Shown one piece after another: positions 11,100 through 51,270 of a DNA stretch of 64,000 nucleotides. Each line of letters starts with the position of its first letter. Positions within the stretch are counted from its first letter, which is position 1. The position numbers were made by a program, and so were the translations under genes. Source of the DNA: an uncultured Acidobacteriota bacterium. GTDB taxonomy: Bacteria > Acidobacteriota > Terriglobia > Terriglobales > Acidobacteriaceae. The stretch lies in NCBI GenBank assembly GCA_963696565.1, contig CAVOKS010000013.1, forward strand, positions 7,513 through 71,512, in the 5' to 3' direction. Below the pieces are notes generated by a model. It worked only from the letters and a program-made list of their open reading frames with translations, was not told where the DNA came from and did no database searches.

Positions 11100-11241
11100 A
11101 GCGAAATAGTCTAGAGCTGAGTTTCAGCGGCTCTTCTCCCGAGTTCGGACTCGCCGAGGAACCATCCCGCCTAACGAACCATTTCCCTTTTCCGTGCTGG
11201 TTGAGTACGATGTCTGTCCATATCCTGATCTTCTGCTAATC

Positions 11242-11703
11242 ATGGCAGCCATCACCCTGCGCATTAACGGCAGCGAGCGGAAAGTGGACGTCGCGCCCGA
11301 GACGCCCCTGCTCTGGGTTCTGCGCGACACGCTGGAATTGACCGGCACGAAATTTGGTTGTGGCGCCGGTCTTTGCGGCGCGTGTACTGTCCATGTGGAC
11401 GGAGCGCCCGTGCGTTCTTGCTCAACGCCAGTCTCGCAAGCCACGGCGAAAAATATCACCACCATTGAGGGATTGTCGGCGAACGGGCTGCATCCCTTGC
11501 AGCTCGCTTGGATCGAGGAGCAGGTGCCGCAATGTGGCTATTGTCAGACTGGCCAGATCATGGCTGCGGCGGCTTTGCTGGCAAAGAATCCGCAGCCTTC
11601 CGATGACCAGATTACGCAGGCGATGTCTGGCAACCTGTGCCGCTGCGGGACCTATGACCGCATTCGGCGTGCGATCCATCGGGCCGCGGGAGGTGCACGA
11701 TGA
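11242..11703 (+). CDS. (2Fe-2S)-binding small subunit of an IorA/CoxS-type molybdenum hydroxylase
   Basis: ORF 11194..11703, with the start at ATG 11242 ([17 protein letters not shown]). Cysteine clusters [12 protein letters not shown] and CGYCQTG...CRCGTY are present. Confidence 0.9.
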
Positions 11704-13820
11704 GCCAGCTCTCCCGGCGTGACTTTCTCGCTGCTGGCGTGGCCGCTGGAGCCGGACTCGTCATTGGTTTCTATTTACCTCACGGAAGCTCGGCCGGGAA
11801 AGACACATTCGCGCCGAATGCTTATTTGAAGATCACGCCTGACGGAAAGATCACGATCGTAGTGGCGCGCTCTGAGATGGGGCAAGGAGTCCGCACTTCG
11901 CTTCCCATGATTCTCGCCGAAGAACTCGAAGCGGACTGGAAGCAGATCACGATTGAACAAGCCGGGGCGAGTACGCTTTACGGTGATCAGACTACCGGCG
12001 GCAGTGCGAGCGTGCGTACTACTTGGGATCCGATGCGAAAGGCTGGAGCAGCCGCGCGCGAAATGCTGATCAGCGCTGCCGCTCTAGAGTGGGGTGTTCC
12101 ACGCTCCGGCTGCAAAGCCGAAAACAGCGCAGTCGTGCATGCGGCGTCAAATCGCCGGCTCACGTATGGACAGTTGGCGAGCAAGGCCGAGTGCGCAGCC
12201 GATTCCGACTGACGTGCCTTTGAAGCAAGCCAAGGATTACCAAATCGTCGGCAAGCCTTTGCCGAGGCTTGATGTGCCGTCGAAGGTCGACGGCAAGGCT
12301 GAGTTCGGCATTGACTTTCGTCTCTCGGGCATGAAGTACGCTGTGCTGGCTCGGTGTCCCGTGATCGGAGGCAAAGTGGCAAGCTTCGATGACAAGGAAT
12401 CCAGGAAGATCTCTGGCGTTGGTTTCGTCGGAAAGATCAGTGATTCGGCCGTGGCCGTTGTCGCTGAAAGCGTTTGGAGCGCGATGGAAGGACGGCGCGT
12501 GCTGAATGTGCAATGGGATGAAGGGTCCGAATAAGGATCTTAATTCGGCCGCGATTTTCGAGTCATTGAAGAAGTCTGCTTCCGGCAAGGCGGTCACTCT
12601 GTACTCGACCGGCGATGTATCGAAAGCGTCAGGACGCCGCATTGCAGCCGAGTACCAGCTTCCGCTGATGGCACACGCCGCGATGGAACCGGGGAATTGC
12701 ACGGCGCACTTCCGCGGATCGAGCTGCGAGCTGTGGGCGCCAACGCAGGTGCCGCAGGATGTTCGCGACTCGGTGGCGCAGGCGATCGGACTGGATCCGG
12801 ATCAGGTCAAGGTCAATGTCACATTGATGGGAGGCGGATTCGGGCGACGATTGGAGCACGACTACGGAGTGGAGGCTGCGTTGGTCTCGAAGAGCGGCGA
12901 ATGCTCCCGTGAAAGTGCTGTGGACGCGCGAAGACGATATGCGGAACTCGACTTACCGTCCCGCGAGCTATCACCAACTCAGCGCGGTGCTCGATGGACG
13001 GGGCTGGCCGGTAGCATTCACACATCGGATTATCGCGCCTTCGATCAGCGGACAAAAAAAGTTGCCCACCGCGAATGGGGTCGATCCTGACCTGCCGGAT
13101 GAGGCTGCGCTGATTTATTCTTTTCCCGCCGCGACACTCGAATATGTGATGACCGAAACCCCCGTGCCCTTGGGCTGGATGCGTTCGGTGTACGCTCTGC
13201 AAGCCGGGTTTGCCAGCGAATCTTTTATCGATGAACTCGCGGCGGCGGCAAAAAAGGATCCACTCGAATACCGGATGCACTTGCTGTCGAAAGATGAAGA
13301 CATCAAATACTTCGATACGGTTTGGTATACGGCGCGGATGCGCGGTGTGCTGCAGCTAACGGCGGAGAAAGCCGGTTGGGGAAAACCGCTGCCGGCTGGC
13401 CACTATCAAGGGATCGCCTGCTTCGGTTGTTTCAGCACTTACATGGCGGAGGTCGTGGAGATCTCGATGGAGGGCGATCAGCCGCATATACATCGGGTGG
13501 TGGCGGCGATGGATTGTGGGCAAGTGGTGAATCCGAACATTCTCGAACAACAAATCAAGGGCGGCGTGATTTACGCGCTCACCAACGCTTTGCGTGCGCA
13601 GATCACGATTGAAAAAGGACGGGTGGTACAGGGGAACTTCGACGACTATGCGCCTATTCGTATGAATGAGGCTCCGCTGATCGAACCTTATTCAGTTCCG
13701 AGCACAGAGGCGCCGACCGGTGCGGGCGAGCCTCCGGTGCCGCCGCTGGCGCCCGCTTTGTGCAATGCGATTTTCGCGGCGACGAAAAAGCGCATACGCG
13801 CCTTGCCGATTTTGAGCTGA
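11700..13820 (+). pseudogene. molybdopterin-binding large subunit (IorB / aldehyde oxidase beta type), frameshifted
   Basis: ATGA overlap with the small subunit and a twin-arginine signal [19 protein letters not shown]. Fragments 11700..12212, 12094..12534, 12506..13090 and 12909..13820 together give a full-length subunit. Breaks lie near 12195, 12520 and 12900. Confidence 0.85.
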
Positions 13821-23278: not shown

Positions 23279-24391
23279 TTACAGGGTTCTCTTGAAGAGC
23301 GGCGTGGCAATGCTTAGCGTGATCACCGCAAAAACGGAGAGATAAAGCATGTCTGGCCAAACAGCGGCCATCCCCGTTTCTTTGAGCAGTATGGATTTGA
23401 AGCCGTGCACCGCAAACGTGAACGGGTCCACTCTCGCGATACCGCGGAGCCACCAGGGGAACGCTTCGATAGGATAGATCGCTCCACTGGGGAAGAACAG
23501 AAGGGTATTAAGAATTCCGAACATCGCGCGCGGCACCAGGGGATCCTCGATGCGCACCATAAGCAGAAACATCATGGTGTTGAGCGAGATTGACGTCAAC
23601 ACAATCATGATCAACAATTCGAGCGCGGTTTGCGGGTTGAAGATCGTTCCCACGCCAGCCAGGAGCGAGCCAACCACAGTGATTACGAGCCCCGTCATCA
23701 CCGCCTTGAGGGCTCCGGCGGCATTCAGACCGAAGACCAACTCGGTCTTGGTGATGGGCGTAACCAAATATCCTTCGTGCACGCCCCGGGCTTTGTCATC
23801 GATGTAAAGCATTCCGCCGCCGATCATCACAGAAACGAACATCGCCAGGGTGATCGAACCGGGCAAAAGATACTTCATATATTCGATGTAAGGATAAAGC
23901 TCGACAATCTGTAAGACGGTCTGCTGCAGGATTCGCGGCTCAATCGTGGGCTGGTTGAGCGCGTTGGTGATGCTGGTGAGTTCGTCCTCAAGCGTCGAAC
24001 TCATAAAGTTGTCGCTGTTATCGACCACGAGCGCGATGCGCGGCTGGTCTTGTTCGTACACGCGCCGCGAATACTGCGGCGGAATAATTACGGCGCCCTG
24101 GATCTTGCCGTTGCGCACATCGTCCATCGCCGTCTTTGGGTCGTTGTAATAGACCGGTTCGAAGGTTCGCATGTTGGCGCGAACCGAATCAAAGGCCTCG
24201 CGGATCTTGAGAGCCTGGGTGCCTCCGTCCTGATCGACCAGTCCCAGCTTGGCGTCCCGGATCTTTCCGCCGAAGGCGTTGCCCAGCACGATGAGTTGCA
24301 CTAGGGGAAAAACCATCGACGCCATCATGAGCGCCGGAGAGCGAAAGAATTTGCGCATTTCGCGCTCGACGATGGCGAGAATGTGATTCAT
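23279..24391 (-). CDS. ABC-2 type transporter permease
   Basis: 370 aa with an N-terminal TM helix, a large loop and five C-terminal TM helices. It overlaps the upstream ATPase ORF by 4 nt. Confidence 0.85.
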   Translation of the reverse strand: MNHILAIVEREMRKFFRSPALMMASMVFPLVQLIVLGNAFGGKIRDAKLGLVDQDGGTQALKIREAFDSVRANMRTFEPVYYNDPKTAMDDVRNGKIQGAVIIPPQYSRRVYEQDQPRIALVVDNSDNFMSSTLEDELTSITNALNQPTIEPRILQQTVLQIVELYPYIEYMKYLLPGSITLAMFVSVMIGGGMLYIDDKARGVHEGYLVTPITKTELVFGLNAAGALKAVMTGLVITVVGSLLAGVGTIFNPQTALELLIMIVLTSISLNTMMFLLMVRIEDPLVPRAMFGILNTLLFFPSGAIYPIEAFPWWLRGIARVDPFTFAVHGFKSILLKETGMAAVWPDMLYLSVFAVITLSIATPLFKRTL

Positions 24392-26562
24392 GGCTGCAAC
24401 CCCGGTCTGGGCGGCATGACGAAGGCAAACGCCTTTACCAGTTCATCGCGCAACTGCCGCCCGGTGTAATGGACGAACACATCGTCGAGCGTGGTGTTCT
24501 GCACGGAGAGTGACCGGATTTTGACCCCAGCGTGCACGGCCGCTTCCACAAGTTCAGTTGTAGTTCGCGATCCGTCCCCGGTAAGGACGCGGTACATGCC
24601 CGCGCCTTCGTGTTGCACCGAGGTCACCTCGGTCAGTTTCTTCAGACGATCTTCCCAGTCCGCAGGTGCGCCATCGAATTGTGCTTCTATCACGTTCGAT
24701 CCGGGCACACTGGCCTTTAACGCCGGCGGCGTATCAAGCGCAACGAGCTTGCCGTGATCGACAATGGCGATGCGGTCGCACAGCCGATCGGCCTCGTCCA
24801 TGTAGTGAGTTGTGATCAGGATGGTGAGCTGTCGATGGCTCTTGATGTTGGTCAGCATCTCCCAGACTGCGACGCGAGACACCGGATCCAGCCCGGTCGT
24901 TGGCTCGTCCAGGAAAAAAATTCGCGGGCTGTGCACCAGGCCTCGGGCAATTTCGAGCCGCCTTCTCATGCCGCCCGACAAGGTCTTGGTCTGGGCCGAA
25001 CGCCACTTCGTCAGGTCGACCAGTTCGAGCAACTCGTCAATTGCTTCCTTTCGCTTTTTCGCAGGGACATCGTAGAGCTTGGCGTAGATATTGAGATTCT
25101 CTTCGATGGTCAGATCAAGATCGCTGGTGAGCGCCTGCGGAATCACGCCAATCGCCCTTCGAGCTGCGTCCGGATCTTTCTGCACATCGTGACCCGCAAT
25201 ACGAGCTGTCCCCGAAGTAATCGGGATGAGCGTGGTCATCATCCTTATCAACGTGGACTTGCCTGCACCATTCGGTCCCAGCAAACCGAAGATCTCTTCT
25301 TCCTTTACGTTGAAGGAAACGTCATCGACGGCGGTAAAATCGCCGTATTTCTTGACGATATGTTCCACTGCGATGGCGTCGAACGCAGCGGGATCGCCGG
25401 CGGCACCGTGCCCGTTGGTGGAAACTTCATCGCTCGACCCACCGCGAGAATTGAGATCGGTGATCATGGATGCTGTTCCGCCGAAACGTTCTCTTGCGGC
25501 GTACCCTTGAGCTGATCCGGGCGAGACTAAGACTTCCGCCGTCATGCCCGGCACATACGCGCCTTTCGGATTGTCTAAGCGAACCTTTAGCACGATAGTG
25601 CGAATGTCACGCTTGCGCCGGCCTACATCGCGTTGCGTCGCAAAGTCTGCCTCGGCTGATTTGAAGAACACCTTGCCTGATGTGATTGTCCCTCCGGGCA
25701 GCCGAATCCGGAGCGTGTCACCTAGACCGATGTGATCGGACTCGGTTTCAGGAATTGCCGCGCGAACCCACGTGTCGCCGAGGTCGACGATGGTCACGAT
25801 TGGCTGCCCGGCATTCAGCACTTCCCCTTCGCGCGCGGCGCGGACAGAGACAGTCCCCGTTACCGGCGCATAAATCTTGGTGTATCCCAAGCGAACTTCA
25901 GCCTGCTTCAGCATGCTTTCCGCATTGGCGACTTGCGCGCGAGTGGATTCGACTTCACTGCGGGCCGCATGGGCCTGATGAGTATTCGCAATCGCGGTAT
26001 TCAGGTCGGCTTCAGCGGCGCTTACCTGCTCTTTCAGCGATTGCACCAACGCCTTCTGTGCGGCGAGGTTACTTTCCGCCTGCACCCGATCCTGATCAGA
26101 GGCAACACCCTCTTTCGCCAGTTCAATCGTGCGGCGACTATCGCTCTCCGTGCGCTGCAGAGTCGCTTCCGCCTGTAGCAATTGCGCGCGCATAGATTGC
26201 AGCCGCGCCTGCGCATTAACTACGCTGCTCGACGTGGATCCCTGCGTGGCCTGCATCGTCGACTGGGTCTCGGCCACCTTGGATTTCAAACTGTCGATAG
26301 TGGCTGCCGCCGCGCGCTCTTCCGCCTCTAATTCCGAGGGATCGAGTACCGCGATCAGGTCACCCTGTTTCACCTGGGTTCCCTCGTCAACCAAGAGCTT
26401 CGCCAGTCGGCCCTCGATCTGCGGGCTCACGATCACCTGATTCGAATCGACGGTGCCGATCAGAATCAGATCCCTGCTGCGCGGCGTGGACAGCAAGTAG
26501 TAGGTCAGCGAGATGGTGAAGATGACGCCGAGAATGATTAGAAATTTATTTCGTACACTCAC
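24388..26562 (-). CDS. HlyD-type membrane fusion protein joined in frame to an ABC transporter ATPase (join probably artefactual)
   Basis: Residues 1 to ~350 have a TM anchor, a coiled coil and a barrel region of the HlyD family. Residues ~400 to 724 have Walker A GPNGAGKST, the signature LSGGMRRR and Walker B IFFLDEPTTGLD. At the junction an alternative frame ends in TGA overlapping the ATG of MITDLNS (ATGA). Confidence 0.85.
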   Translation of the reverse strand: MSVRNKFLIILGVIFTISLTYYLLSTPRSRDLILIGTVDSNQVIVSPQIEGRLAKLLVDEGTQVKQGDLIAVLDPSELEAEERAAAATIDSLKSKVAETQSTMQATQGSTSSSVVNAQARLQSMRAQLLQAEATLQRTESDSRRTIELAKEGVASDQDRVQAESNLAAQKALVQSLKEQVSAAEADLNTAIANTHQAHAARSEVESTRAQVANAESMLKQAEVRLGYTKIYAPVTGTVSVRAAREGEVLNAGQPIVTIVDLGDTWVRAAIPETESDHIGLGDTLRIRLPGGTITSGKVFFKSAEADFATQRDVGRRKRDIRTIVLKVRLDNPKGAYVPGMTAEVLVSPGSAQGYAARERFGGTASMITDLNSRGGSSDEVSTNGHGAAGDPAAFDAIAVEHIVKKYGDFTAVDDVSFNVKEEEIFGLLGPNGAGKSTLIRMMTTLIPITSGTARIAGHDVQKDPDAARRAIGVIPQALTSDLDLTIEENLNIYAKLYDVPAKKRKEAIDELLELVDLTKWRSAQTKTLSGGMRRRLEIARGLVHSPRIFFLDEPTTGLDPVSRVAVWEMLTNIKSHRQLTILITTHYMDEADRLCDRIAIVDHGKLVALDTPPALKASVPGSNVIEAQFDGAPADWEDRLKKLTEVTSVQHEGAGMYRVLTGDGSRTTTELVEAAVHAGVKIRSLSVQNTTLDDVFVHYTGRQLRDELVKAFAFVMPPRPGLQP

Positions 26563-27361: not shown

Positions 27362-28627
27362 CTAATCTGCAACGCGCAAAACGACGCTTTTACTCTTTTC
27401 GATACCCAACTCCGCAATGTCACGGCGCGACGTCTCGATCGCCATCCGCGAACAAGCACGGGTGAGCACTCGAACCTGGTGTTTCCTGGAATCGCTCCGC
27501 GCCCATACGGCGGCGGCTCGAGCCACTCCGACGCCGTTCCGCTCCAGGATAGTCGTGATCGATCCGATATCGCTGGGACTACCAACCGTGACACGAAGAT
27601 AGTGCCTGCTATCGCAATCGGCAGCCCTCGCCGCGACGCGGCCGCCGCGACTCATCGAAAATCCGCCTCGGTGGCAAGCAATGTCGACCACATCAGAAAG
27701 CACAGCGCTGGCACTGGGCAGCGAACCCGCTCCCTTGCCCGAAAACAACATTTCTCCCACCGCATCTCCGCGAATCAGCACCGCGTTATTTTCATCGCGA
27801 ATTCCGGCTAATTGATGCGACACAGGCAATAACACCGGGGCGCAACCGAGCGACACAGCATCCCCGTTCAGTTCAGCGGCAGCAACATGCTTGATCACAA
27901 AACCCAATTCCTTGGCTGCCTGCACGTCATCGGCAGCAATGTCGCGGATCCCCTCTACCTGAACCGTTCCAGCATTTACCTGCGCGCTAAAAGCCAACTC
28001 GGTGAGGATTTTCAACTTCTGTGCCGCGTCGTGGCCGTCGATGTCGAGCGTGGGATCAGCTTCAGCGAAGCCTTTAGCTTGTGCCTCGCGAAGCGCAGCT
28101 TCGAACTCGACGCCATCCTCGGTCATGCGCGTCAGAATGTAATTGCAGGTGCCGTTTAGAATCCCGCTGAGCCTTTGAATGTTGTTTCCAACCAGGCCAT
28201 CTCGCAGGGCGCGGATAATCGGAATGCCGCCGCAAACGCTGGCTTCAAATCCCAGGCGAACTTTCTGTTGTTCCGCCGCCTTCATTAAACTGAAACCATC
28301 CAGCGCGAGCAGAGCTTTGTTGGCGGTAACGACGTGTTTGCCGCGCGCCAGCGATCGCTCGATAAAACTTCGCGCCGGCTCGATCCCTCCAACTAATTCC
28401 ACAACCAGATCGCAGCCGTTATTTAACACTTTGTCCGGATCGCTGGTGAGAAGCGCACGATCCACGCCGTGACGCTCTTTATCGAGATCGCGAACCAATA
28501 TCTTGGTGATGCGCAATTCCACGCCAGAGCGCTGACGCACGAGCGCTTCATTCCTGCCCACCAACTCCACCAGGCCGCGGCCAACCGTTCCGCAACCCAA
28601 CAATCCGATTTTTAATTTACGTGTCAT
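27362..28627 (-). CDS. hom: homoserine dehydrogenase
   Basis: ORF 27362..28633, with ATG 28627 giving MTRKLKIGLLGCGTVGRG. Both the catalytic domain and a C-terminal ACT domain are present. Confidence 0.92.
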   Translation of the reverse strand: MTRKLKIGLLGCGTVGRGLVELVGRNEALVRQRSGVELRITKILVRDLDKERHGVDRALLTSDPDKVLNNGCDLVVELVGGIEPARSFIERSLARGKHVVTANKALLALDGFSLMKAAEQQKVRLGFEASVCGGIPIIRALRDGLVGNNIQRLSGILNGTCNYILTRMTEDGVEFEAALREAQAKGFAEADPTLDIDGHDAAQKLKILTELAFSAQVNAGTVQVEGIRDIAADDVQAAKELGFVIKHVAAAELNGDAVSLGCAPVLLPVSHQLAGIRDENNAVLIRGDAVGEMLFSGKGAGSLPSASAVLSDVVDIACHRGGFSMSRGGRVAARAADCDSRHYLRVTVGSPSDIGSITTILERNGVGVARAAAVWARSDSRKHQVRVLTRACSRMAIETSRRDIAELGIEKSKSVVLRVAD

Positions 28628-28959
28628 GGCCAAACTTCACGTGGGGTCCGGGCTAGGACCGCCCCGACCTCCTTTGCGCTATACGCTCCACCGGCAATCG
28701 ACGGCACCAGCAAAACCTCATCGCCATCCTGGAACGCGTAAGTGTTTCCGCCCAGAAATCGGATGTCCTCCTCGTTGACATACACGTTGAGGAACCGCCG
28801 AATCTCGCCGGCTTCATCCCGCAAGTGTTGCTTCAAATCCGGGAACTGCTGGTCGAGCGCGGAGAACAGTTCTCCCAAGTTTGTCGCCGAACATTTCACT
28901 TGTCCGGTTCCGGATGTCAGGCGGCGCAATGCCGTCGGAATTTGCACGGTAACTGTCAT
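28624..28959 (-). CDS. MoaD/ThiS-family sulfur-carrier protein (CysO-like) with a C-terminal extension
   Basis: MTVTVQIPTALRRL...FLNVYVNEEDIRFLGG...GDEVLLVPSIAGG parallels CysO-type carriers. Twenty residues follow the GG. The stop at 28624..28626 overlaps the hom ATG (ATGA). Confidence 0.8.
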   Translation of the reverse strand: MTVTVQIPTALRRLTSGTGQVKCSATNLGELFSALDQQFPDLKQHLRDEAGEIRRFLNVYVNEEDIRFLGGNTYAFQDGDEVLLVPSIAGGAYSAKEVGAVLARTPREVWP

Positions 28960-28960
28960 C

Positions 28961-30248
28961 TCAAGCCTCCACGGTTTCTGGAAACGTCTCCAGCGTTCTC
29001 TGCAAAAATGTTTCGAAGTCGGCGACCTTGGGCCGAATCGGCTCTTCCGCTTCGTACTTTCCGGCGAGCACGTCGGTGGTCTTCAGTCCATTGCCAGTGA
29101 TGCACAGGACGGTCGTTTCGTCCGGCGCGATGCGTCCTTGCCGATAAAGTTTGCGCGCGCATCCAGTGGTTACGCCGCCAGCTGTCTCGGTGAAGATGCC
29201 TTCCGTCTCCGCCAGAAGCTGAATGGACTCGATCATTTCCGGATCGGAAACATCCTCCGCCCAGCCGCCGGTCTTGGTGATGGTCTTTATGGCGTAGTGC
29301 CCGTCGGCCGGATTGCCAATCGCCAGCGATCGAGCCAGCGTCGCCGGCTTCTGCGGCTCTATATCGGCATTCCCAGTGCTTTACTGCAGTCGAAATCGGA
29401 GAACATCCCGTCGCCTGCGCGCCGAAGAACTTCACCGCTTTCGCTTCGACCAAGCCCAGCTGAATCAGTTCGTCGAAAGCCTTTTTGATCTTCACAATCA
29501 ACGACCCGCCGGCCATTGGGCACGACCACGTTGTCGGGCAAGCGCCATCCCAATTGCTCGGCAATTTCGAATCCGACGGTCTTCGAACCTTCTGCGTAGT
29601 AAGGGCGCAGGTTGACATTGACGAATCCCCAGCGATGTTCATCCGCGATCTGCGAGCACAGGCGGTTTACCTGGTCGTAGCTACCGGCGATGCGAACCAG
29701 CCGGGCGCCAAAAACCTGTGTGCCCAGAATTTTGGCCGGCTCAAGATCGGCGGGAACAAAAATCCAGGCTTTGAATCCGTTGCGCGCGGCCTGCGCGGCT
29801 ACGGAATTTGCCAGGTTGCCAGTCGAAGAACACGCCACCGTGTCGAAGCCAAAGCTGCGCGCCTGCGCCAGCGCGACCGCAACCACGCGGTCTTTGAAGC
29901 TAAGGGTGGGCAAGCAGACCGCGTCGTTCTTGATGAAGAGATTCTTGCGCCCAGGCGCGCTCCCAGTTGCTGCGCCCGCAGCAGAGGCGTGAAGCCCACC
30001 GGCAAACTTGGCTGATAATTTAGCGGCAGCGGAAGCAGTTCCGCATAGCGCCACATGTTGGGAGCGCGGGCAGCGATGCGTTCACGCGTGAAACTTCCGC
30101 GCACTGCGTCGTAATCGTAGAAAACTTCCAGCGGAGAAAAACAGTCGTCGCAGATCGACCGAGGCTGGTTTCCCCAGCTCTTGTGGCATTCCCGGCAGCG
30201 CAATTCATATTTGGCCGAGGCAGGACGTAGAAACAGCTTTCGAAACAC
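28961..30248 (-). pseudogene. threonine-synthase-fold PLP enzyme with an N-terminal zinc ribbon (ThrC-like, possibly MetM-type), frameshifted
   Basis: Starts at GTG 30248, with a ribbon CRECHK...CDDC and the PLP lysine motif LSFKDR. Fragments are 29799..30248, 29359..30054, 28956..29642 and 28961..29236. There are about 4 breaks, near 29945, 29505, 29370 and 29240. Confidence 0.85.
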
Positions 30249-30380
30249 TCGCAGTAGCGCTCATCAGCAAAATCGCTTTCCGTAACTGCGGGACGAGCCG
30301 TCGAAAACTGTCTTAACCGCTTTGCCGGAAAAATTATAAGGAGGAGAAGGAACCGAGATGCTGAAAATGCGGGCACCCCG

Positions 30381-30493
30381 AATCTCATGTCCCCCGTTTC
30401 CGGGTGAGAGTTGACACCAGACGACCGGGAGATGACTCCCGATCCGGTTGTCGTGGCTTCTTAGGGCTCGTCCCTCAGCCACTCTTCATGAAA
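30381..30493 (-). promoter_or_regulatory. SAM-I (S-box) riboswitch aptamer
   Basis: The minus-strand RNA is UUUCAUGAAGAGUGGCUGAGGGACGAGCCCUAAGAAGCCACGACAACCGGAUCGGGAGUCAUCUCCCGGUCGUCUGGUGUCAACUCUCACCCGGAAACGGGGGACAUGAGA. It shows P1 UUUCAUG/CAUGAGA, P2 GUGGC/GCCAC with a GAGGGA...AAGAA internal loop, a P3 hairpin, and P4 CCCG-GAAA-CGGG. It matches the S-box consensus (AAGAG.GGC.GAGGGA..GCCC..GAAGCC..CAACC...GGUG.CAA.UC) by eye. Confidence 0.85.
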
Positions 30494-30527
30494 TCCAAGG
30501 TCTGCTCCGAAGAGCAAACTTGATCGA

Positions 30528-30556
30528 ATATTACATGGCGCCAATTGTTACGTCAA
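30528..30556 (-). promoter_or_regulatory. near-consensus sigma70 promoter for the riboswitch operon
   Basis: On the minus strand: TTGACG (30556..30551), a 17-nt spacer and TAATAT (30533..30528). A UGCUC-UUCG-GAGCA hairpin follows near the predicted 5' end. Confidence 0.55.
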
Positions 30557-31083: not shown

Positions 31084-31453
31084 TCACTTCGCCTGCAAGG
31101 CCAACGCCGTAGGGTGTTTCGGTTGGTAGAGACCGAGATGTCCGCCGCCAGGAAGTTTGATTCTGGTGATCGATCCCCATCGCTCGTCTTTGAACATCGG
31201 AACAGGCCACGCCTTTCTTCTTCAGCGCGGACATCTCAGCACTTGAGATCGTCACACATCAGATAAAGTTCGTGCCGGTCATTTTTCTCGTCGGGCTTTC
31301 GTCGGGATGAAATGCGGCTTCCGCCGGAGGCAAGGCGAAAATCAGCCATCCGTGGCCTGCATCTACGGATTTGAATCCGAGAATATCTCTGAAGAAGGCG
31401 CGATCCGCCTCCGCGTCTTTGCTGTACACGATTACGTGAGCGCCGATGATCAT
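31084..31453 (-). pseudogene. second VOC family protein, two frameshifts
   Basis: MIIGAHVIVYSKDAEADRAFFRDILGF (ORF 31259..31453) continues to HELYLMCDDL and then SAEMSALKKKGVAC. It finishes as FKDERWGSITRIKLPGGGHLGLYQPKHPTALALQAK, with the stop at 31084..31086. Confidence 0.65.
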
Positions 31454-38021: not shown

Positions 38022-41000
38022 ATGTTTTCACGGGTGAGGACCAACCAGGTGCAAATCAATAAGGTGCAAGAGTGTGCCGTTAGATTTCAATGTCTGCTTA
38101 TGATTTTCCTTTCGTTCGTTGTGCTTACATCCGCCGCTGCCCAGACTGTTCCTCCTGAACTGTATAGCGGGCTCAAATGGCGCCTGATCGGCCCATTTCG
38201 CGGCGGCCGAGTCGTCGCCGTGGCAGGGCTTCCCGGAAGCTCGACTACTTTTATTTTGGTTCGGTCGATGGCGGAGATTTGGAAAACCACCGACGCGGGC
38301 ATGGTGTGGAAGCCAATCTTCGATGGACAACCGATCGCTTCGATCGGCGCGCTCGCCGTGGCGCCGTCCGATCCCAAAGTTATTTACGCGGGTACGGGAG
38401 AGTCCGACATTCGCTCCAATCTGTCATCCGGCGACGGCGTTTATAAATCGACGGATGGCGGACAGACCTGGAACAACATGGGCTTGCGCGATTCGCGCCA
38501 GATCAGCAAGATCGTTGTCGATCCGCAAAATGCCAACATCGTCTACGTCGCTGCTTTCGGGCACGCATACGCACCGAACGACGAGCGCGGTGTCTACAAG
38601 TCAACCGACGGCGGCGCGACTTGGACAAAAGTTCTGGATCAAGGTCCGGACATCGGCGTTTCGGATCTGGCCATTGCCACGGAAGACCCGAAGATTCTTT
38701 TCGCCACCACATGGCGAAGCCACCGTCCGCCATGGAGCACCTACGCTCCGCTCGACGGGCCGGGCAGCGGCCTCTTCCGCTCCGCAGGACAGCGGCCAAT
38801 CGTGGTCGCGTCTCACCGGCAATGGATTGCCTGAAGGAGACTGGGGCCGCACGGCCGTTGCCGTTTCGCCCAACGGCAAGCGCGTGTACGCGCTTATCAG
38901 CGCTTCCAAGAAACCAGGACTCTATCGCTCCGACGATGGAGGAAATACCTGGACACTGCAGAACGAAGACCGCCGGCTCACCAGCCGCGCCTGGTATTTC
39001 GGAAACATCACGGTCGATCCGAATAATCCGGACGTGATTTACATGCCCAACGTCGCGCTCTATCGCTCCGAAGATGGCGGCAAAACGATTTCAATAGTGC
39101 GCGGCGCGCCCGGCGGAGACGATTACCACCAGATCTGGATCGATCCCAAAGATTCTTCGCGAATGATTCTCGGCACCGATCAGGGCGCGACCATCAGTCT
39201 GGATTACGGCCAGACCTGGAGCACCTGGTACAACCAGCCCACCGGGCAGTTCTATCACGTCATCACAGACGATCAGTTTCCCTACACGGTTTACGGCACG
39301 CAGCAGGACAGCGGCAGCGCCGCGGTTCGCAGCCGTGGCGACGCCGGACAGATCACGCCTCGCGACTGGTTTCTCGCCAGCGGCAGCGAGAGCGGATACA
39401 TCGCGCCCGATCCGAAGGATCCGAACATCCTTTACGCCAGCGGAACCTACGGAGACGTCACGCGTTTCGACATTCGTACTTCGTTCAGCCAGGACATTAC
39501 TCCGTGGCCAATGTCGAACTTTTGGCAGTGAAATTAACTCGCGCAAGTATCGCGATCCGTGGACGCCGGTGCTGGTGATATCTCCGTTCGACAAGAAAAC
39601 ACTTTATCTGGGTACGCAATACGTGATGAAGACGCTCGATGGTGGCCTGCATTGGGAAACCATCAGTCCTGATCTGACCGGAGCGACGCAGCGCCCGGCG
39701 ATAAGAAGCCCGAAGGGCCACCCACGGTGGAGAACGCAAAGGAGCGAGGCTACGGCGTTGTCTACACGATTGCGCCTTCGAGCTTGAACGGAAGTTTGAT
39801 CTGGGCAGGCAGCGACACAGGACTCATCCACATTACGCGCGACGGCGGCAAAACATGGAAAGATGTCACGCCCAGCGGCCTCGAGGACTGGAGCAAGATC
39901 TCGTTGATAGAGGCTTCGCACTTCGATCCCGCAGAAGCCTATGCGGCCGTTGATCGGCATCGCCTCGACGACCAGAAACCGTATCTTTATCGCACTCGCG
40001 ATTACGGCGCGACCTGGCAGTTGATCACAGACGGCATCGGCGCGTCCTCGTTCTTGCGGGCTATCCGCGAAGATCCACAAACTCGGGCTTGCTCTTTGCC
40101 GGAACCGAACTTGGCGTTTATGTTTCATTCGACGACGGCGACCACTGGCAATCGCTGCAGTTGAATCTTCCTACCGTTTCGATCCACGATCTGGACATTC
40201 ACGGAGACGACCTGGTCGTCGCCACCCACGGGCGTGCGTTTTGGATTCTCGATAACATCACGCCATTGCGACAGGCGCATGATGCCGTGAAAGCGGGCGG
40301 CGCATATCTCTACCGGCCAGCCACGGCCGTCCGCGTCGATAATGATGACTTCGTGTCCACTCCGATACCGCCGGAGGAACCTACCGCGAACAATCCGCCC
40401 AATGGCGCCGTCGTTGACTACTACCTCAACGCCACTGCGGCACACATCAAGCTCGATATTCTTGACTCAGCACAGACTCTTGTTCAGAGCTTCTTCCTCC
40501 GACGATCCAAGAGTGCAGCACCCTCCTCGGCCCATCGCCGAGCGCTGGTTTCCGAAACCGGAGATTCTTGGAACCACTCCCGGCATGCATCGTTTCGTGT
40601 GGAACCTCGCCTGGGGCAACTCCGGCCCCAAGCCTGCGAGTCAACCCGCCGGAGACGAGTATCGATCCCCTCGCGGCCCACGCGCGGTTCCAGGCGCTTA
40701 TCAAGTGCGTCTCACCATCGACGGAAAGACTCTGACGCAACCGTTAAAGATCGTGATGGACCCGCGGTCCCCCGCGACTGCTCGCGACCTCGAACAACAA
40801 CTCCAGTTGGGCCGACAGATTTTTGCCGAGGCCACTTCCAGCCGGCAATCTCTGGCAGAGATCAGGTCGGTGCAGAAACAGTTGTCCGACCTTGAACAAA
40901 AGCTCGACAGTCATCAGGCTCAGCTGAAGTCGGCAACCTCACAACTCGAAGCTGAAATTCGCAAGATCCTGGCGGGCAGTGAAGATCCCGCGAACAAAAC

Positions 41001-42795: not shown

Positions 42796-45549
42796 TTAGC
42801 TGAACAAATCCCCTTGCCACAATTTCTGCCCCGCCAGCGCGTTGTAGAAGCCCCAAATGGCCAGCGCGCCAAACCCCAACACAGGGAGCCACGCGCTGCT
42901 AAAATACCACGCGGAAAAGTCTAGAGTCACTGGCGCATTGGCCAGCAATTCCGTAGTAAATATTCCAACGGCCAGGGTTACAAATCCGAAACGAAATACG
43001 ACGATTGCGGCGCCCCCGTACAACAGCGCATTCGCCGTTCCGTCAATCAACGGATATTCGCTGCCCAAGGTTTTCAATGCCACCCATATCGCCACGAACA
43101 CAATGGCCGCCAGCCATTCCTTTCGCAGCGTCACGCGCAGCACGAAGAGCAGAAAAAAGAACAGCAGTGTGGCTTCAATTGAGTCCGGGATTTGAAATAG
43201 CAACGCCCCAAGCACATGCCGACCCCCCAAAAGATAACTCGTCGAAAAGAATTGCGGAGGCCCGCCTTTCCCCATGGTCAGTAATTGAGCAACTTCGAAA
43301 ATCAGCAGCCAGACAACCCCCAGGATTACGCCAAACAAAACATCGCGCCCTACCAGCGGATCGCGCAGTCGGCCCATCACCACCCGGCTCCAGGACACCA
43401 GCGCTTGCGGCCAATGGCGGCGCACATAAGGCTCGAGCGAAAGATACAGCAGCCATATAAGGCCAGAAAAGAAAAGCGCCGTGCTGATCGCCATGGCGAA
43501 CGGAAACAACATCTCCAGCCCCGGCACCATATGCCCGCGGCATAACCACAACACGATCAGCGTCGTAAAAAGCACGCAGGCCAGGCGGAACGCGCCTCGA
43601 CGATCGCCTCTTCCTCGAATGTAGTTTCGCCGCGCCAACAACGCAGCTCCTCCGACGACCGACAAAATCATTGCCAGAAAAAACAAATTCCCCGCTCGTT
43701 GCGCCGGGGTCTTCGGCTGCTCCGGCTTCATACGCTGTGGCCGAGTCCAGGGCCCGATCAACGAAAAAAACACCGGCTTGCCTTCGAATGCCGCCGCTTC
43801 AATGCGCAATGGGCGGCTGGTGCCGGGCCAGGTCCCCGTCCACGCCACCCTCGTGTCGGAGGTGGCGAGAGACGTCCAGAGCGGCTCCGTTGCCTTGAAT
43901 TGTGTTGCATCCAGCCCGGCTTCGCGAAACAACACGTTCCAGTCAACTGCCTGCGCATGAGCCCCGCCATTCTCGTTTTGCACTTGGGGCGGGATCGCCT
44001 GGAAAAACGTCAGCCGTCCTCGCGGGTCTAGGGTCAGGTTCACCATCCCCGAAAGGATGGGCGGCGGATCGTCCTCCGTTACCATTCCCGGAGTCAGCGT
44101 CGAATCGTGGAAATCGATCCCCATCATGTATTGCGCGCCCTGCCGGTATAAATATTGCAGCGGCGCGGGCCGTCCGGATACCACCTCGTCCCAGCGCGCG
44201 TGCGGCTTGTCATTCTTCTCCACGTACTTCAGGAAATCGTTGTCGTAAGCGAAGTCGCTGGCGGTGTCCGCCGGCTTATCCGTATACCCGAGTTGGCTTA
44301 CAATTTCTTTCGCCTTCTGGGTCAAGACTTCCGGCGATTGCTCAAGTCCCAGTTTCCCCATGCCACTCGTCTTAATGGCAAAGTAGCTAACCAATGCCAG
44401 ACCCACCATCGCCGCTGCCAGACAAAGGATTGCCGTCCGCGGCGCCAATCCCGTGGTTTCTCCCGCCGCCGCAACCATCTGCGGAGACGGCGTTTCTCCC
44501 GCCGCCAACGCCGCCGCCAGCGGATCGCCTCCCGGCAACGCTGCCGCCACACTCAACGCCGAGCCCATCCTGTTTGTTGGATCTGCCTCGAGACAACGCA
44601 AGATCACCCGCTCCACCGCGGGATCGAGATCCTTCACCAGCGTCGATGGCTTGCTCGGCGCCGATTCGCTGCGCACCCGCACCAGTTCTGGCAAAGATTC
44701 CACGCTGAAGGCCCGCTTGCCCGTGAAGATTTCGTACAGCACCAGACCCAGCGCGTAAATATCGCTCTTCGCGTTGACCTCTTTGCCTTCCAACTGCTCC
44801 GGAGCCATATAAGCCGGCGTCCCGCTCCGCACATCGCTGCCCGGAATCTGATCGACCAATCCAGCCAGCCCGAAATCCGTGACCACCACCTGCCCACGCC
44901 CATCGAGCATGATGTTGGCCGGCTTCAGATCACGATGCAGCACTCCCTTGGCATGAGCCGCAGCTAAACCAGCACAAAGCTGGCGTGCGATTTCCAAAGC
45001 CTTGTCGGCGGGCAAGCGCCCAATGCGCCGTAACAAGGACGCCAAATCCTCGCCGTCCACATACTCCATCGTGAAAAACGTATGCCCATCCACTTCGCCG
45101 ACGTCGTAAACCCGGCAAACATTGGGGTGCGACACCCGCCGCGATAACCGAACCTCATTGCGAAATCGCTCCAGCAGAGTTTCGTCCTTAGTCGCTTCTT
45201 CGGGTAGAAACTTGAGCGCGACCGGTTGCCCCAGCGTCAGATCATCGGCGCGATACACCTCGCCCATGCCGCCTCTGCCCAGTAGCGCAATAATGCGGTA
45301 ACGCCCTGCCAGCAGGCGCCCAGGCAGAAATCGGCCTTCAGTCAGCAGGCCGCCCGAAGAACTGGGAGTCCGCCCGCCAGATGTCTTCGCACCCGACCCC
45401 GATGACGCTTTCCCCGATGGTCTGGGCTTCGAATCCAGATACTCCATGGTCGCGAGTTCGTCGCCAGACGCCATGGCCGCGCCACAAGACGAACAGAATC
45501 GCCCCGTCTCCGACACTTGCGAACCGCATGATACGCAAATGGACATCAA
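42796..45549 (-). CDS. Ser/Thr protein kinase with an N-terminal zinc ribbon and a large C-terminal polytopic membrane domain
   Basis: Intact 917 aa. It has CVSCGSQVSETGRFCSSCG, Hanks motifs GRGGMGEVYRA, HRDLKPANIM, DFG and APE, and multiple TM helices in the last ~330 aa. Confidence 0.9.
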   Translation of the reverse strand: MMSICVSCGSQVSETGRFCSSCGAAMASGDELATMEYLDSKPRPSGKASSGSGAKTSGGRTPSSSGGLLTEGRFLPGRLLAGRYRIIALLGRGGMGEVYRADDLTLGQPVALKFLPEEATKDETLLERFRNEVRLSRRVSHPNVCRVYDVGEVDGHTFFTMEYVDGEDLASLLRRIGRLPADKALEIARQLCAGLAAAHAKGVLHRDLKPANIMLDGRGQVVVTDFGLAGLVDQIPGSDVRSGTPAYMAPEQLEGKEVNAKSDIYALGLVLYEIFTGKRAFSVESLPELVRVRSESAPSKPSTLVKDLDPAVERVILRCLEADPTNRMGSALSVAAALPGGDPLAAALAAGETPSPQMVAAAGETTGLAPRTAILCLAAAMVGLALVSYFAIKTSGMGKLGLEQSPEVLTQKAKEIVSQLGYTDKPADTASDFAYDNDFLKYVEKNDKPHARWDEVVSGRPAPLQYLYRQGAQYMMGIDFHDSTLTPGMVTEDDPPPILSGMVNLTLDPRGRLTFFQAIPPQVQNENGGAHAQAVDWNVLFREAGLDATQFKATEPLWTSLATSDTRVAWTGTWPGTSRPLRIEAAAFEGKPVFFSLIGPWTRPQRMKPEQPKTPAQRAGNLFFLAMILSVVGGAALLARRNYIRGRGDRRGAFRLACVLFTTLIVLWLCRGHMVPGLEMLFPFAMAISTALFFSGLIWLLYLSLEPYVRRHWPQALVSWSRVVMGRLRDPLVGRDVLFGVILGVVWLLIFEVAQLLTMGKGGPPQFFSTSYLLGGRHVLGALLFQIPDSIEATLLFFFLLFVLRVTLRKEWLAAIVFVAIWVALKTLGSEYPLIDGTANALLYGGAAIVVFRFGFVTLAVGIFTTELLANAPVTLDFSAWYFSSAWLPVLGFGALAIWGFYNALAGQKLWQGDLFS

Positions 45550-49402: not shown

Positions 49403-49742
49403 ACTCAGCTTCTTAAATGGAGGACGGCCGTCCCTGGCGTCCCGACAGCTACAAAAACATTCCGATTTTCGAGGGCGCAGTACTTTCGAACTCGCGAAAA
49501 AACTTTCGATTCGTATCAGGGTATGCCTTCAGGCATACCGCAACTCGATTAAAAATGAGCCCTGCTTTAGCCGCTGGGCTCGATGTTCCAACTGTAAAAG
49601 GCATTTGTCCGCAGCACCATGCGCAGGCGGGATCGCGCGTAACTCCAAGAAACAACAGATGTTTCCATCAATATATGTACATATATATGCGTACATAATC
49701 GCACTAACAAAATGTTCCACGTGGAACACTTCTCGCTCTATT

Positions 49743-51074
49743 TCAGGCGATGTTTCGCTTGAGACGTGCGCCACGGCCGCGAGCTTCGCTCGCGCTCTCG
49801 ACTCGATTGCGGCCCGCCTTCTTGGCCCGATACAGAGCCTTGTCGGCGGCTTGAATTACTTGTTCCACCTCGCGCGTCTTCGCAGTCTGATTCCGCGACC
49901 CCGATGCTCACCGTGACCGAGAGTCCGAGAGATGTTTCCGGCGGTGGGTTGCGAGGCCGGCCTAGTTTGCGACGCGTGCTTCTCTTATCTTCGCTTCTGC
50001 GGCCGGCGCCGCGAGGAGCGCCGCGACGCTCGGGCGTGTTGCGCACCCGGAACCTGGATTCTTCGATGAGAACTCTGAGCGAATCAAGATGGGGCACGAC
50101 TTCTTTCGCGGACTTTCCCGCGAACAGAATCGAGAACTCTTCTCCGCCAACCCGGAATGCCTGCCCGTTGCCGCTCACGCGGGCAAGTCGCGAAGCGACC
50201 ATGCTGAGAACCTGATCTCCGGTGTCGTGTCCATAGGTGTCGTTGAAGTTTTTGAAGTGATCGATATCGACGACAGCTATGGAGTAAGGCGCTTCGAGGC
50301 GCAGCAGGGCTTCGTTGAAGGCGCGGCGCGCGGGCAGCGAAGTGAGTTCGTCGTGATAGGCCAGGACATAAGTGTTCTCGATGATCGATGCGATCAGGAG
50401 CAGGCCCGCCGTCGCCCAATAGGCAACCGCGATTCGTCCCACAGCGTTTGCCTGCAGGCCTAGAAAAGTCGCAGCCAGCGACCAGAGCAGGCCAATTTCG
50501 ACCGGCTTGCGATAGAGAAAGATGCGGGCGAGCAGAACCACGAAAGCCGCGACGAAAGCCAGCCAGGCAAGTTGCGGGATTTTCGTCCAGTGAAATAAAG
50601 ATCGGCTCACGAACGCGAAGTTAAGAAATGCCGGACTGGCAATCTGTCCGGGCCGGCAGAGGACCGCGACGAAGACGGACTCAAGGAACACCAAGACAAG
50701 ACGAGGAGTAATGTCTGGAATCGATAGGCCGCGCTCGCGAATGAGCGCCAGCACGATGAAGTTGGCGGGGACGAGAAAGGCGATGGCTTCGAACGCAATG
50801 CGACCCGGCCCGCTCGCGACCGCTCGCCCACCGGAAAAGAACTCAAGGGCGCGGTGAGCCAGAAGCAACATGATCAGAGCGAAGAGGACGCGGCTGGAGT
50901 TGAAACGCCAAGCCAGCAGAATTCCGGCAATGAAGACTGCGTAATAGTAGAAGTCGACTGCGGCCGCGGAGATCGGACAGAAATCCCGCCCGACAACAGT
51001 ACGACTGCGGCCAGCAGGAGTATGCCGCCAGGCACGAACAGGGATTTCAGCGTTCCTTTGCTCCCCAGATCCAA
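49743..51074 (-). pseudogene. membrane-bound GGDEF diguanylate cyclase, two frameshifts
   Basis: Core from ORF 49738..51630: about 7 TM helices, then YHDELTSLPARRAF, DIDHFKNFNDTYGHDTGD and RVGGEEF. The N-terminus lies in ORF 50874..51074, with a break near 50985. The true tail KTREVEQVIQAADKALYRAKKAGRNRV lies in another frame (break near 49870), with the stop at 49743..49745. Confidence 0.8.
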
Positions 51075-51270
51075 GCCGGTGTGATCCTTTAGTAAAAGAA
51101 AGGTGTGTCAACGAATTATCGTCGGCAGAGCAGAGCGCGAGTGAGTGGCGGAGCAGGTTCCGGGGCAAACGTTCCCGTTTGCGGAAGGCAGAGACCTTCG
51201 TGCAGCACAGGAATCTCCAATCTTCGGCTGGTTCTTGCCTAGAATCGGAAGTGCAGGTTAGAGAAACCTT

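Follow-up and report, generated by a model that had tools for sequence, protein, structure and literature searches.

A predicted SAM-repressed operon for MetM/MetO-type homocysteine synthesis in Terriglobales (Acidobacteriota)

The minus strand of a 64-kb stretch of DNA from an uncultured member of the Terriglobales (Acidobacteriota; contig CAVOKS010000013.1), hereafter the window, most likely carries a three-gene operon of the methionine branch, in which a leader with an S-adenosylmethionine (SAM)-I riboswitch precedes (i) a metM-like gene for a pyridoxal 5′-phosphate (PLP) enzyme with the threonine synthase (ThrC) fold, (ii) a metO-like gene for a ThiS/MoaD-family sulfur carrier, and (iii) hom, encoding homoserine dehydrogenase, the three genes being presumably co-transcribed (Table 1). 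We read this as a SAM-repressed, MetM/MetO-type homocysteine operon, a reading to which we assign a probability of about 0.78. A first-pass annotation of this DNA had proposed SAM-controlled homocysteine synthesis, and our analyses support that proposal through the aptamer, the CysO-like carrier, the placement of the enzyme in a clade outside the solved ThrCs, and the coexistence of a canonical ThrC with the pair in five relatives. The pathway itself is already known (from Streptomyces, 2024), and its occurrence in Acidobacteriota is most likely what is new here; in open-access text, we found no publication linking the MetM/MetO pathway to Acidobacteria.

The precedent is Streptomyces albulus, where, as citing papers report, the ThrC homolog MetM turns O-phosphohomoserine into homocysteine with the MetO thiocarboxylate, and Mec and MoeZ mature and charge MetO (Hasebe et al. 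2024, Appl Environ Microbiol 90:e01247-24). The S. albulus metM gene has an upstream SAM riboswitch (mSystems, PMC12172450), and GapMind 2026 includes the MetM/MetO pathway and notes that MetM is often misannotated as threonine synthase. The Streptomyces route to which the first-pass annotation had pointed is real, and it comes with its own riboswitch. The window operon resembles this system in pairing a ThrC-homologous PLP enzyme with a ThiS/MoaD carrier, in its upstream SAM riboswitch, and in its threonine synthase label; in addition, the MoeZ-type E1 (activating) enzyme and the Mec/JAB peptidase needed in S. albulus co-cluster with the pair in some relatives (for example L080; related loci are labelled L001 etc., and related proteins P0001 etc.). 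It differs in its acidobacterial origin, in having hom within the operon, in a two-residue extension after the carrier Gly-Gly, in its riboswitch platform, and in having no E1 or peptidase genes nearby.

In the pathway that we propose, homoserine dehydrogenase would supply homoserine, a kinase encoded elsewhere would convert it to O-phosphohomoserine, and the ThrC-fold enzyme would eliminate the phosphate and take up sulfur from the Gly-Gly thiocarboxylate of the carrier, rather than water, to yield homocysteine. Before this, the carrier would have to shed its terminal Ser-Val, after which an E1-like enzyme of the MoeZ/ThiF type would adenylate it and load the sulfur; neither this peptidase nor this E1 is encoded in the window.

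The leader contains a genuine SAM-I (S-box) aptamer. A search with Rfam RF00162, the check that had been suggested for this leader, gave a match at 30494..30382 of the minus strand that covers the entire model (positions 1-108 of 108) and, at 69.2 bits (E = 4.4e-14), clears the gathering score of 44.4; it is the single Rfam match in the whole window. The helices in the cmscan alignment, namely P1 (AUUUCAUG/CAUGAGAU), P2 (GUGGC/GCCAC with GAGGGA...GCCC), P3, and P4 (CCCG-GAAA-CGGG), agree with the element-by-element assignment made earlier from the sequence. For the comparative analysis, a covariance model built from acidobacterial aptamers replaced a cross-phylum MAFFT alignment that was too poor in P3 and P4. 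This model scored the window aptamer at 121.8 bits and detected 48 aptamers in 1.5 Mb, all on the coding strand and 120-350 nucleotides (nt) upstream of the enzyme gene, with no aptamer elsewhere in the same 1.5 Mb. Across the 48 aptamers, which come from at least seven phyla, 98.3% of the cells are paired and compensatory change occurs at 14 of 26 pairs; none of 500 shuffles reached the observed values, and slid controls were 40-49% paired. Rfam also confirmed RF00162 in three distant loci, and the window aptamer is 100% identical to the aptamer of its intact relatives. SAM binding, and repression of the operon by it, are predicted from these features, and the presence of a terminator in about half of the homologous leaders is consistent with an OFF switch.

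The first gene encodes a PLP enzyme with a CxxC...CxxC ribbon and a lysine motif, as had been described: it scores 222 bits with Pfam PALP, 265 bits with TIGR00260 (cut-off, 167), and 290 bits with NF006050, slightly below the cut-off of 303, its ∼65 extra N-terminal residues include the four conserved cysteines of the ribbon, and its SFKDR motif is conserved. Canonical ThrCs (TIGR00260; PDB 2zsj, 1uim, 6cgq, and 2d1f) share with it the type II PLP fold, the SFKDR motif with the catalytic lysine, most of the substrate-binding motifs for phosphate and carboxylate, and presumably the O-phosphohomoserine substrate. The window family differs from them in its N-terminal extension with four cysteines, in its carrier partner, in its SAM control, and in its substrate loop, which reads STGN-L in the Zn-ribbon family and STGN-T in the solved ThrCs. 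It is 33-36% identical to the latter and forms a separate clade in a neighbor-joining tree, a crude tree with only three canonical ThrCs. Within the family, the identity of the window enzyme is 53-58% to members from cyanobacteria and 48-51% to members from Micromonosporaceae. No Streptomyces member was among the top matches of our homolog searches, which returned proteins from Micromonosporaceae, archaea, and metagenomes instead.

As anticipated for automated annotation, every homolog that we found carries the database name “threonine synthase”. NCBIfam release 20 contains no MetM model, and all of the family members that were tested score above its threonine synthase cut-off. Intact homologs are abundant in soil metagenomes and in metagenome-assembled genomes (MAGs) of Terriglobales, and their alignment places the start of the enzyme at ATG 30264 (MSATASV...KAVSTPASAKYELRCREC), which shortens the leader from the ∼270 nt first given for it to ∼257 nt. 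An alternative start at GTG 30248 was ruled out, since the intact homologs begin at ATG 30264, and an open reading frame (ORF) extended upstream into the aptamer (P0012, 474 residues) was rejected because its frame is not conserved in relatives.

The second gene, which starts 1 nt past the enzyme stop, encodes a protein with a β-grasp ThiS-family domain and a C-terminal Gly-Gly, as judged from its profile match (47 bits with PF02597, Pfam ThiS) and alignments. Its description as CysO-like holds well: Mycobacterium tuberculosis CysO (3dwg_C) is its best solved relative, with a full-length match at E = 9e-20, followed by the CysO-type carrier 4n6e, and among relatives the C-terminus always reads ...P(S/A)(I/V)AGG. 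About half of these proteins end exactly at AGG, and in the clade of the window one or two residues follow it (SV in the closest relative). The orthologs in L001-L004 are 93 residues long; a 111-residue ORF at 28624..28959 is an artefact of a 1-nt deletion near 28687, past which the frame overruns the true stop. The carriers of one Acidobacteriaceae/Terriglobus sub-clade (L026, L027, L030, L032, L034, and L036), encoded directly downstream of the thrC-like gene, continue for 16-34 residues past Gly-Gly in a Cys-rich tail (for example, ...IAGG-SCSCCSYCGREECVCG); such a tail would have to be removed before thiocarboxylate formation, and metal binding or a persulfide relay are possible roles for it.

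We infer the functional coupling of carrier and enzyme from their genomic association. GTDB species genomes scanned with the family alignment yielded 80 loci at 53-88% identity, in Acidobacteriota, Cyanobacteria, Planctomycetota, Nitrospirota, Nitrospinota, and Verrucomicrobiota, as well as in Kiritimatiellae, Chloroflexota, Deltaproteobacteria, Thermodesulfobacteriota, and a Heliomicrobium; in all, 84 related loci were analysed. In 74 of the 84, spread over at least ten phyla, the carrier gene comes directly after the enzyme gene, and in 47 a SAM-I aptamer immediately precedes the enzyme gene. As the first-pass annotation argued, SAM control is unexpected for threonine synthesis and fits the synthesis of methionine or homocysteine. 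Aptamer-positive loci comprise 31 of 41 from Acidobacteriota, all five from Planctomycetota, both from Verrucomicrobiota, both from Chloroflexota, and kiritimatiellal and deltaproteobacterial loci; with our covariance model, none of the 15 cyanobacterial loci had an aptamer. In Micromonospora coriariae, which belongs to the same phylum as S. albulus, a SAM-I aptamer abuts the gene of the homolog, and there is no adjacent carrier gene.

Neighborhood clustering, combined with Pfam and NCBIfam scans, further showed a ThiF-family E1 immediately downstream of the carrier in seven loci, one of which (L080, a Caldimicrobium) has a full-length MoeZ/MoeB-type protein with a rhodanese domain, together with aspartate kinase in nine loci, NIL-domain proteins in four, and JAB peptidases in three; the relatives with these E1 and JAB neighbors belong to phyla other than that of the window. 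A canonical ThrC of 363-375 residues lies 2-8 kb from the pair in five genomes (Table 1), and the two paralogs therefore coexist there; these five ThrCs are without a Zn ribbon and score 320-342 bits with TIGR00260. The gene order in Nitrospirota loci is enzyme, carrier, NIL, ThrC, and aspartate kinase, and that in L080 is CysM-like, JAB peptidase, thrC-like enzyme, carrier, NIL protein, and MoeZ. Compact clusters of CysM/CysK-like, JAB, Zn-ribbon enzyme, carrier, and NIL genes are found in L080 (8616-12946), L050 (9983-14191, where the carrier ORF continues into the NIL domain), and L083 (286-4580), and their composition suggests that one carrier may serve both cysteine and homocysteine synthesis in loci of this type.

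Several points weigh against the homocysteine reading. Assignment to the MetM family is by transitive similarity and by common gene context. The homocysteine activity of the acidobacterial members is likewise a prediction. The window encodes, besides the pair and hom, no thrB, second thrC, E1, JAB peptidase, or other met genes. The enzyme and carrier genes contain five indels within 1.6 kb, somewhat above the window average, which may point to inactivation. Finally, a Microcystis “ThrC” with a metO-like neighbor, 51.6% identical to MetM, reportedly did not clearly behave as MetM in vivo (PMC12172450), and function may therefore differ among clades without the riboswitch.

The indels raise the possibility that, in the source genome, the operon is a decaying pseudogene whose frameshifts, lost terminator, and weak sequestering hairpin all reflect relaxed selection, an explanation that we consider improbable. 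Mapping against L002 (95.9% DNA identity) and L003 places frameshifting 1-nt indels of the enzyme gene at ∼30226 (+1), 29947 (-1), 29516-21 (+1), and 29375-8 (+1), in addition to the single 1-nt deletion of the carrier gene. Their density of five in 1.6 kb, none of them compensated, the nine to ten indels between 31.3 and 28.7 kb, a region that is indel-rich relative to the average, their location mostly outside homopolymers, and an extra mismatch in hairpin H of the leader (see below) would all fit decay. Against this, uncompensated 1-nt indels affect at least 14 of the 21 genes in a 21-kb syntenic block (18900-40400), at ∼1 per 0.8-0.9 kb (for example, at 25517, 31186-31295, 33514, 34680, 37047, and 38784-40085), and the housekeeping genes plsX and fabD are also broken. 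Because they are so widely spread, the indels are a property of the sequence and not of the operon, and because many related MAGs are long-read “MFD” assemblies, assembly error is likely. Moreover, the repaired enzyme is 97-98% identical to intact homologs (98% to the intact 431-residue P0001), with premature stops arising only from the shifts; the aptamer is unchanged relative to that of intact relatives; and the terminator is also missing from L001-L003, whose genes are intact. Elsewhere in the block, one indel fuses HlyD-like and ABC ATPase genes into a 724-residue ORF (24388..26562).

Less probable again, and in our view unlikely, is a genuine Zn-ribbon threonine synthase, with the carrier serving another pathway and the riboswitch balancing the threonine and methionine branches at O-phosphohomoserine. 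The enzyme does exceed the TIGR00260 cut-off by a wide interval and retains the catalytic lysine and most substrate-binding motifs of the solved ThrCs, and the Microcystis homolog reportedly yielded some threonine in vitro (PMC12172450). Yet a SAM-OFF switch on such an enzyme would curb threonine production under methionine surplus, for which there is no metabolic rationale, and the near-constant carrier neighbor, the co-clustering of E1, JAB, and CysM genes in some loci, the separate canonical ThrC in the same cluster in five genomes, and the family's position in a clade of its own all argue against a threonine synthase.

The M. tuberculosis CysM/CysO/Mec/MoeZ system (PDB 3dwg and 3dwm) resembles the operon in its carrier, which aligns over its full length, and in its chemistry, in which a PLP enzyme uses a protein thiocarboxylate on an O-phospho amino acid; CysM-like, JAB, and E1 genes also lie in or beside the cluster in L080, L050, and L083. 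The window differs from it in the ThrC fold with a Zn ribbon, in the expected conversion of O-phosphohomoserine to homocysteine, and in SAM control. Some cysteine genes are also under SAM-I riboswitches. The least probable explanation, that the pair makes cysteine from O-phosphoserine in the manner of CysM/CysO, or a thio-metabolite, draws on this background, on CysO being the closest solved carrier relative, and on the CysM/CysK-like genes beside the pair in L080, L050, L043, and L056 (with which the carrier may be shared), but is very unlikely given that the enzyme has the ThrC and not the CysK/CysM fold, that the CysM-like genes, where present, are additional and separate, that co-located hom (in the clade of the window) and aspartate kinase (in nine loci) point to a homoserine-derived substrate, and that the characterised family member reportedly makes homocysteine (Hasebe et al. 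2024).

A further carrier-dependent route to homocysteine is reported for Wolinella succinogenes (HcyS/HcyD/HcyF/MetY). There, a metalloprotease reportedly removes the C-terminal extension of a ThiS-like carrier, which an E1 activates so that it can serve as the sulfur donor. Unlike the route through a ThrC-fold enzyme and phosphorylated homoserine, it reportedly employs MetY, an O-acetylhomoserine sulfhydrylase of fold type I, on acylated homoserine.

Structural comparisons of the leaders revealed a long-range helix that connects the aptamer to the region of the start codon, a feature that we regard as well supported by the modelling. Element E (GGCUCGUCCC and the adjoining GCAGUUAC) has as its core the exact reverse complement of the aptamer P2b hairpin, and the core of this pair is the sole inverted repeat that a repeat finder detected in the leader. 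In 21 loci, an exact P2b complement of 9-12 nt is found at a constant place, +73 to +92 past the aptamer; per locus, no more than 3 of 300 shuffles matched it. Together with its next 7-9 bases, E is predicted to form 16-20 base pairs (bp) with the 5′ half of P2 in 19 of 19 loci (the window, L001-3, L005-16, L024, L038, and L047), at -33 to -39 kcal/mol for the real duplexes as against -13 to -17 ± 3 kcal/mol for their shuffled controls, of which 0 of 200 reached the real duplex. For the window itself, RNAduplex gives 17 bp and -32.9 kcal/mol, compared with -13.9 ± 2.7 kcal/mol for shuffles, again with 0 of 200 reaching it. The helix also lies inside the unconstrained minimum-energy fold of the leader in all five loci folded, these folds being 4-19 kcal/mol better than aptamer and platform folded apart.

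The bases after E also serve as the 5′ arm of a second hairpin, H, the 3′ arm of which stops 1-6 nt short of the AUG. Ten loci have a strong hairpin H, L007 and L009 retain its base stem despite 90-nt insertions in the loop, and L047 shows compensatory changes in H with P2 complementarity retained. In the sub-clade of the window, the E core GCUCGUC can instead pair across GAUGAGC (G-AUG-AGC) in a hairpin of -12 to -18 kcal/mol, and with E unpaired from P2, the start region of the window is predicted to be occluded by a hairpin of -15.3 kcal/mol. A second acidobacterial clade has the same platform architecture with different sequences.

We hypothesize a switch in which, without SAM, the 5′ half of P2 would capture E (30299-30282) and leave the start site open, and in which, with SAM, the aptamer would retain P2, so that E would fold back over G-AUG-AGC and close the start site. 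Control of the translation start by the P2-E helix is a tentative proposal, which we rate just short of an even chance. Two findings speak against it: hairpin H is weak in the sub-clade of the window, and the computed accessibility of the start site changes modestly (0.44 versus 0.57, and 0.50 with E shuffled; predicted direction in 14 of 19 loci; 0.39 to 0.58 at the initiation region of the window), which lends the switch limited thermodynamic support. Treated as an intermolecular duplex, E and the start region pair significantly only in L011 and L013, and marginally in L010; the pairing appears in the fold of the platform as a single strand. Alternatively, Rho might terminate transcription at the C-rich tract, which lies exposed.

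Upstream of E, a CU-rich tract in the post-aptamer segment (UUCCUUCUCCUCCUU) shares homology with the terminator 5′ arm found in relatives, and in the predicted fold it pairs with the aptamer segment GGGGGA..GAGAU in an anti-aptamer, antiterminator-like helix. About half of the riboswitch-positive relatives carry this terminator (CCUCUUUUCC/GGAAAAGAGG followed by a U-run, 15-35 nt past the aptamer, -12 to -23 kcal/mol), among them L005, L008-L015, L024, L041-L047, L050, L057, L065, L071, L072, and L079. A consensus scan and a hairpin-plus-U-tail search found no intrinsic terminator in the window leader, and none is present in L001-L003, L038, or L006, where, as in the window, the 3′ arm has diverged to GGCAAAGC. 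Since E lies ∼80 nt past the aptamer, downstream of any terminator, transcripts that escape termination would still be silenced by E, and the terminator-less sub-clade of the window would rely on the translational layer alone. A role for the CU-rich tract as an anti-Shine-Dalgarno (anti-SD) element was rejected, as its duplex energies were no better than those of shuffles (a fraction of 0.06-0.96 being at least as good). The platform varies by lineage, the start codon directly adjoining the aptamer in Micromonospora (L085).

A comparable arrangement has been described for Xanthomonas campestris, where a SAM-I riboswitch controls metA-metB-hom translationally, with hairpins over SD and AUG (PMC7270179). 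That system, like the window, includes hom in the operon and has no intrinsic terminator; it differs in regulating metA/metB and in a platform that also binds initiator tRNA, and the accessible part of that report describes no pairing of the P2 5′ strand with a downstream element such as that in the clade of the window (PMC7270179).

If the reading is correct, the threonine synthase label gives metabolic reconstructions of soil Acidobacteria and other phyla a spurious second thrC and maybe a methionine gap, and a SAM-controlled MetM/MetO pair may be a major, systematically misannotated methionine route in Acidobacteriota, Planctomycetota, and Verrucomicrobiota. It would take a pathway so far characterised in Streptomyces alone into seven or more additional phyla in which the SAM control is shared, and it offers a genomic rule for MetM/MetO-type pathways, namely a Zn-ribbon ThrC homolog and a following ThiS-like gene ending in AGG, often with SAM-I upstream. 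The long-range P2 switch, if true, would be a further variant of SAM-I coupling between ligand binding and expression. That both hold together, i.e., a second translational checkpoint through the P2 5′ strand, and not the usual P1 3′ strand, alongside MetM/MetO as a major misannotated methionine route, seems to us possible, at odds that are clearly under even.

Table 1. Positions of the operon, its leader elements, and the canonical ThrC genes found near the pair in related loci
Feature	Position	Strand	Details
Putative sigma-70-type promoter	30528..30556	(-)	TTGACG 30556-30551, 17-nt spacer, TAATAT 30533-30528
5′-terminal stem-loop	30500..30519	(-)	GUUUGCUC-UUCG-GAGCAGAC; minimum-energy fold and hairpin flag; at predicted transcript start
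SAM-I (S-box) aptamer	30382..30494	(-)	P1-P4; RF00162, own covariance model, covariation
P2 5′ strand	30465..30482	(-)	GUGGCUG-A-GGGACGAGCC; proposed switching strand, complementary to E
Post-aptamer segment	30338..30381	(-)	hairpin UCGGGGUGC/GCAUCUCGG, then CU-rich tract UUCCUUCUCCUCCUU (30352-30338)
Element E	30282..30299	(-)	GGCUCGUCCC (30299-30290) + GCAGUUAC; predicted to pair with P2 5′ strand or across start codon
Translation initiation region	30259..30281	(-)	SD-like GGAAAG 30281-30276; G-AUG-AGC 30265-30259; ATG 30264-30262
metM-like gene, ThrC-fold PLP enzyme	28961..30264	(-)	PALP, TIGR00260; ∼433 residues repaired; four 1-nt indels
metO/cysO-like carrier gene, ThiS/MoaD family	28679..28959	(-)	PF02597; 93 residues repaired, ...SIAGG-SV
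hom, homoserine dehydrogenase	27362..28627	(-)	421 residues from ATG 28627; intact
Canonical ThrC, L052	1974-3101		
Canonical ThrC, L054	2168-3268		
Canonical ThrC, L055	11838-12929		
Canonical ThrC, L061	17647-18738		
Canonical ThrC, L076	18132-19223		

The putative promoter reported in the first-pass annotation is present on the minus strand, with nine of 12 consensus matches in a consensus scan, and is kept in relatives with diverged flanks. L001-L003, which are independent contigs with flanks only 86-96% identical to those of the window, have exactly its -35 box and a similar -10 box. The stem-loop at the predicted transcript start is also kept in relatives and may stabilize the mRNA.

Profile matches confirm each of the three genes that had been placed behind the leader. 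The span initially given for the system (28624-30556) encloses the promoter, leader, enzyme, and carrier, and leaves hom (28627..27362) outside. Hom scores 457 bits with NF004976 (cut-off, 205) and matches PF03447 and PF00742, and the enzyme-carrier-hom order recurs in L001-3, L024, and L038. In the window, hom starts 49 nt past the repaired carrier stop, the spacer being 7-8 nt in L024 and L038, and a consensus scan found no promoter-like site in the carrier-hom interval. This spacer (28628-28678) contains a GGUCC...GGACC hairpin and a strong AAGGAGG ∼35 nt upstream of the hom start, too far for an SD sequence.

Elsewhere in the window, fragments of a molybdopterin-dependent oxidoreductase (a 2Fe-2S subunit, then MoCoBD domains) occupy several ORFs at 11194-13820 of the plus strand, the splits being probably caused by indels. 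Two loci are unrelated to the operon: a 917-residue Ser/Thr protein kinase at 42796-45549 of the minus strand, and, at 49738-52530, a GGDEF protein together with a response regulator that shares its ORF with an OmpA-like domain.

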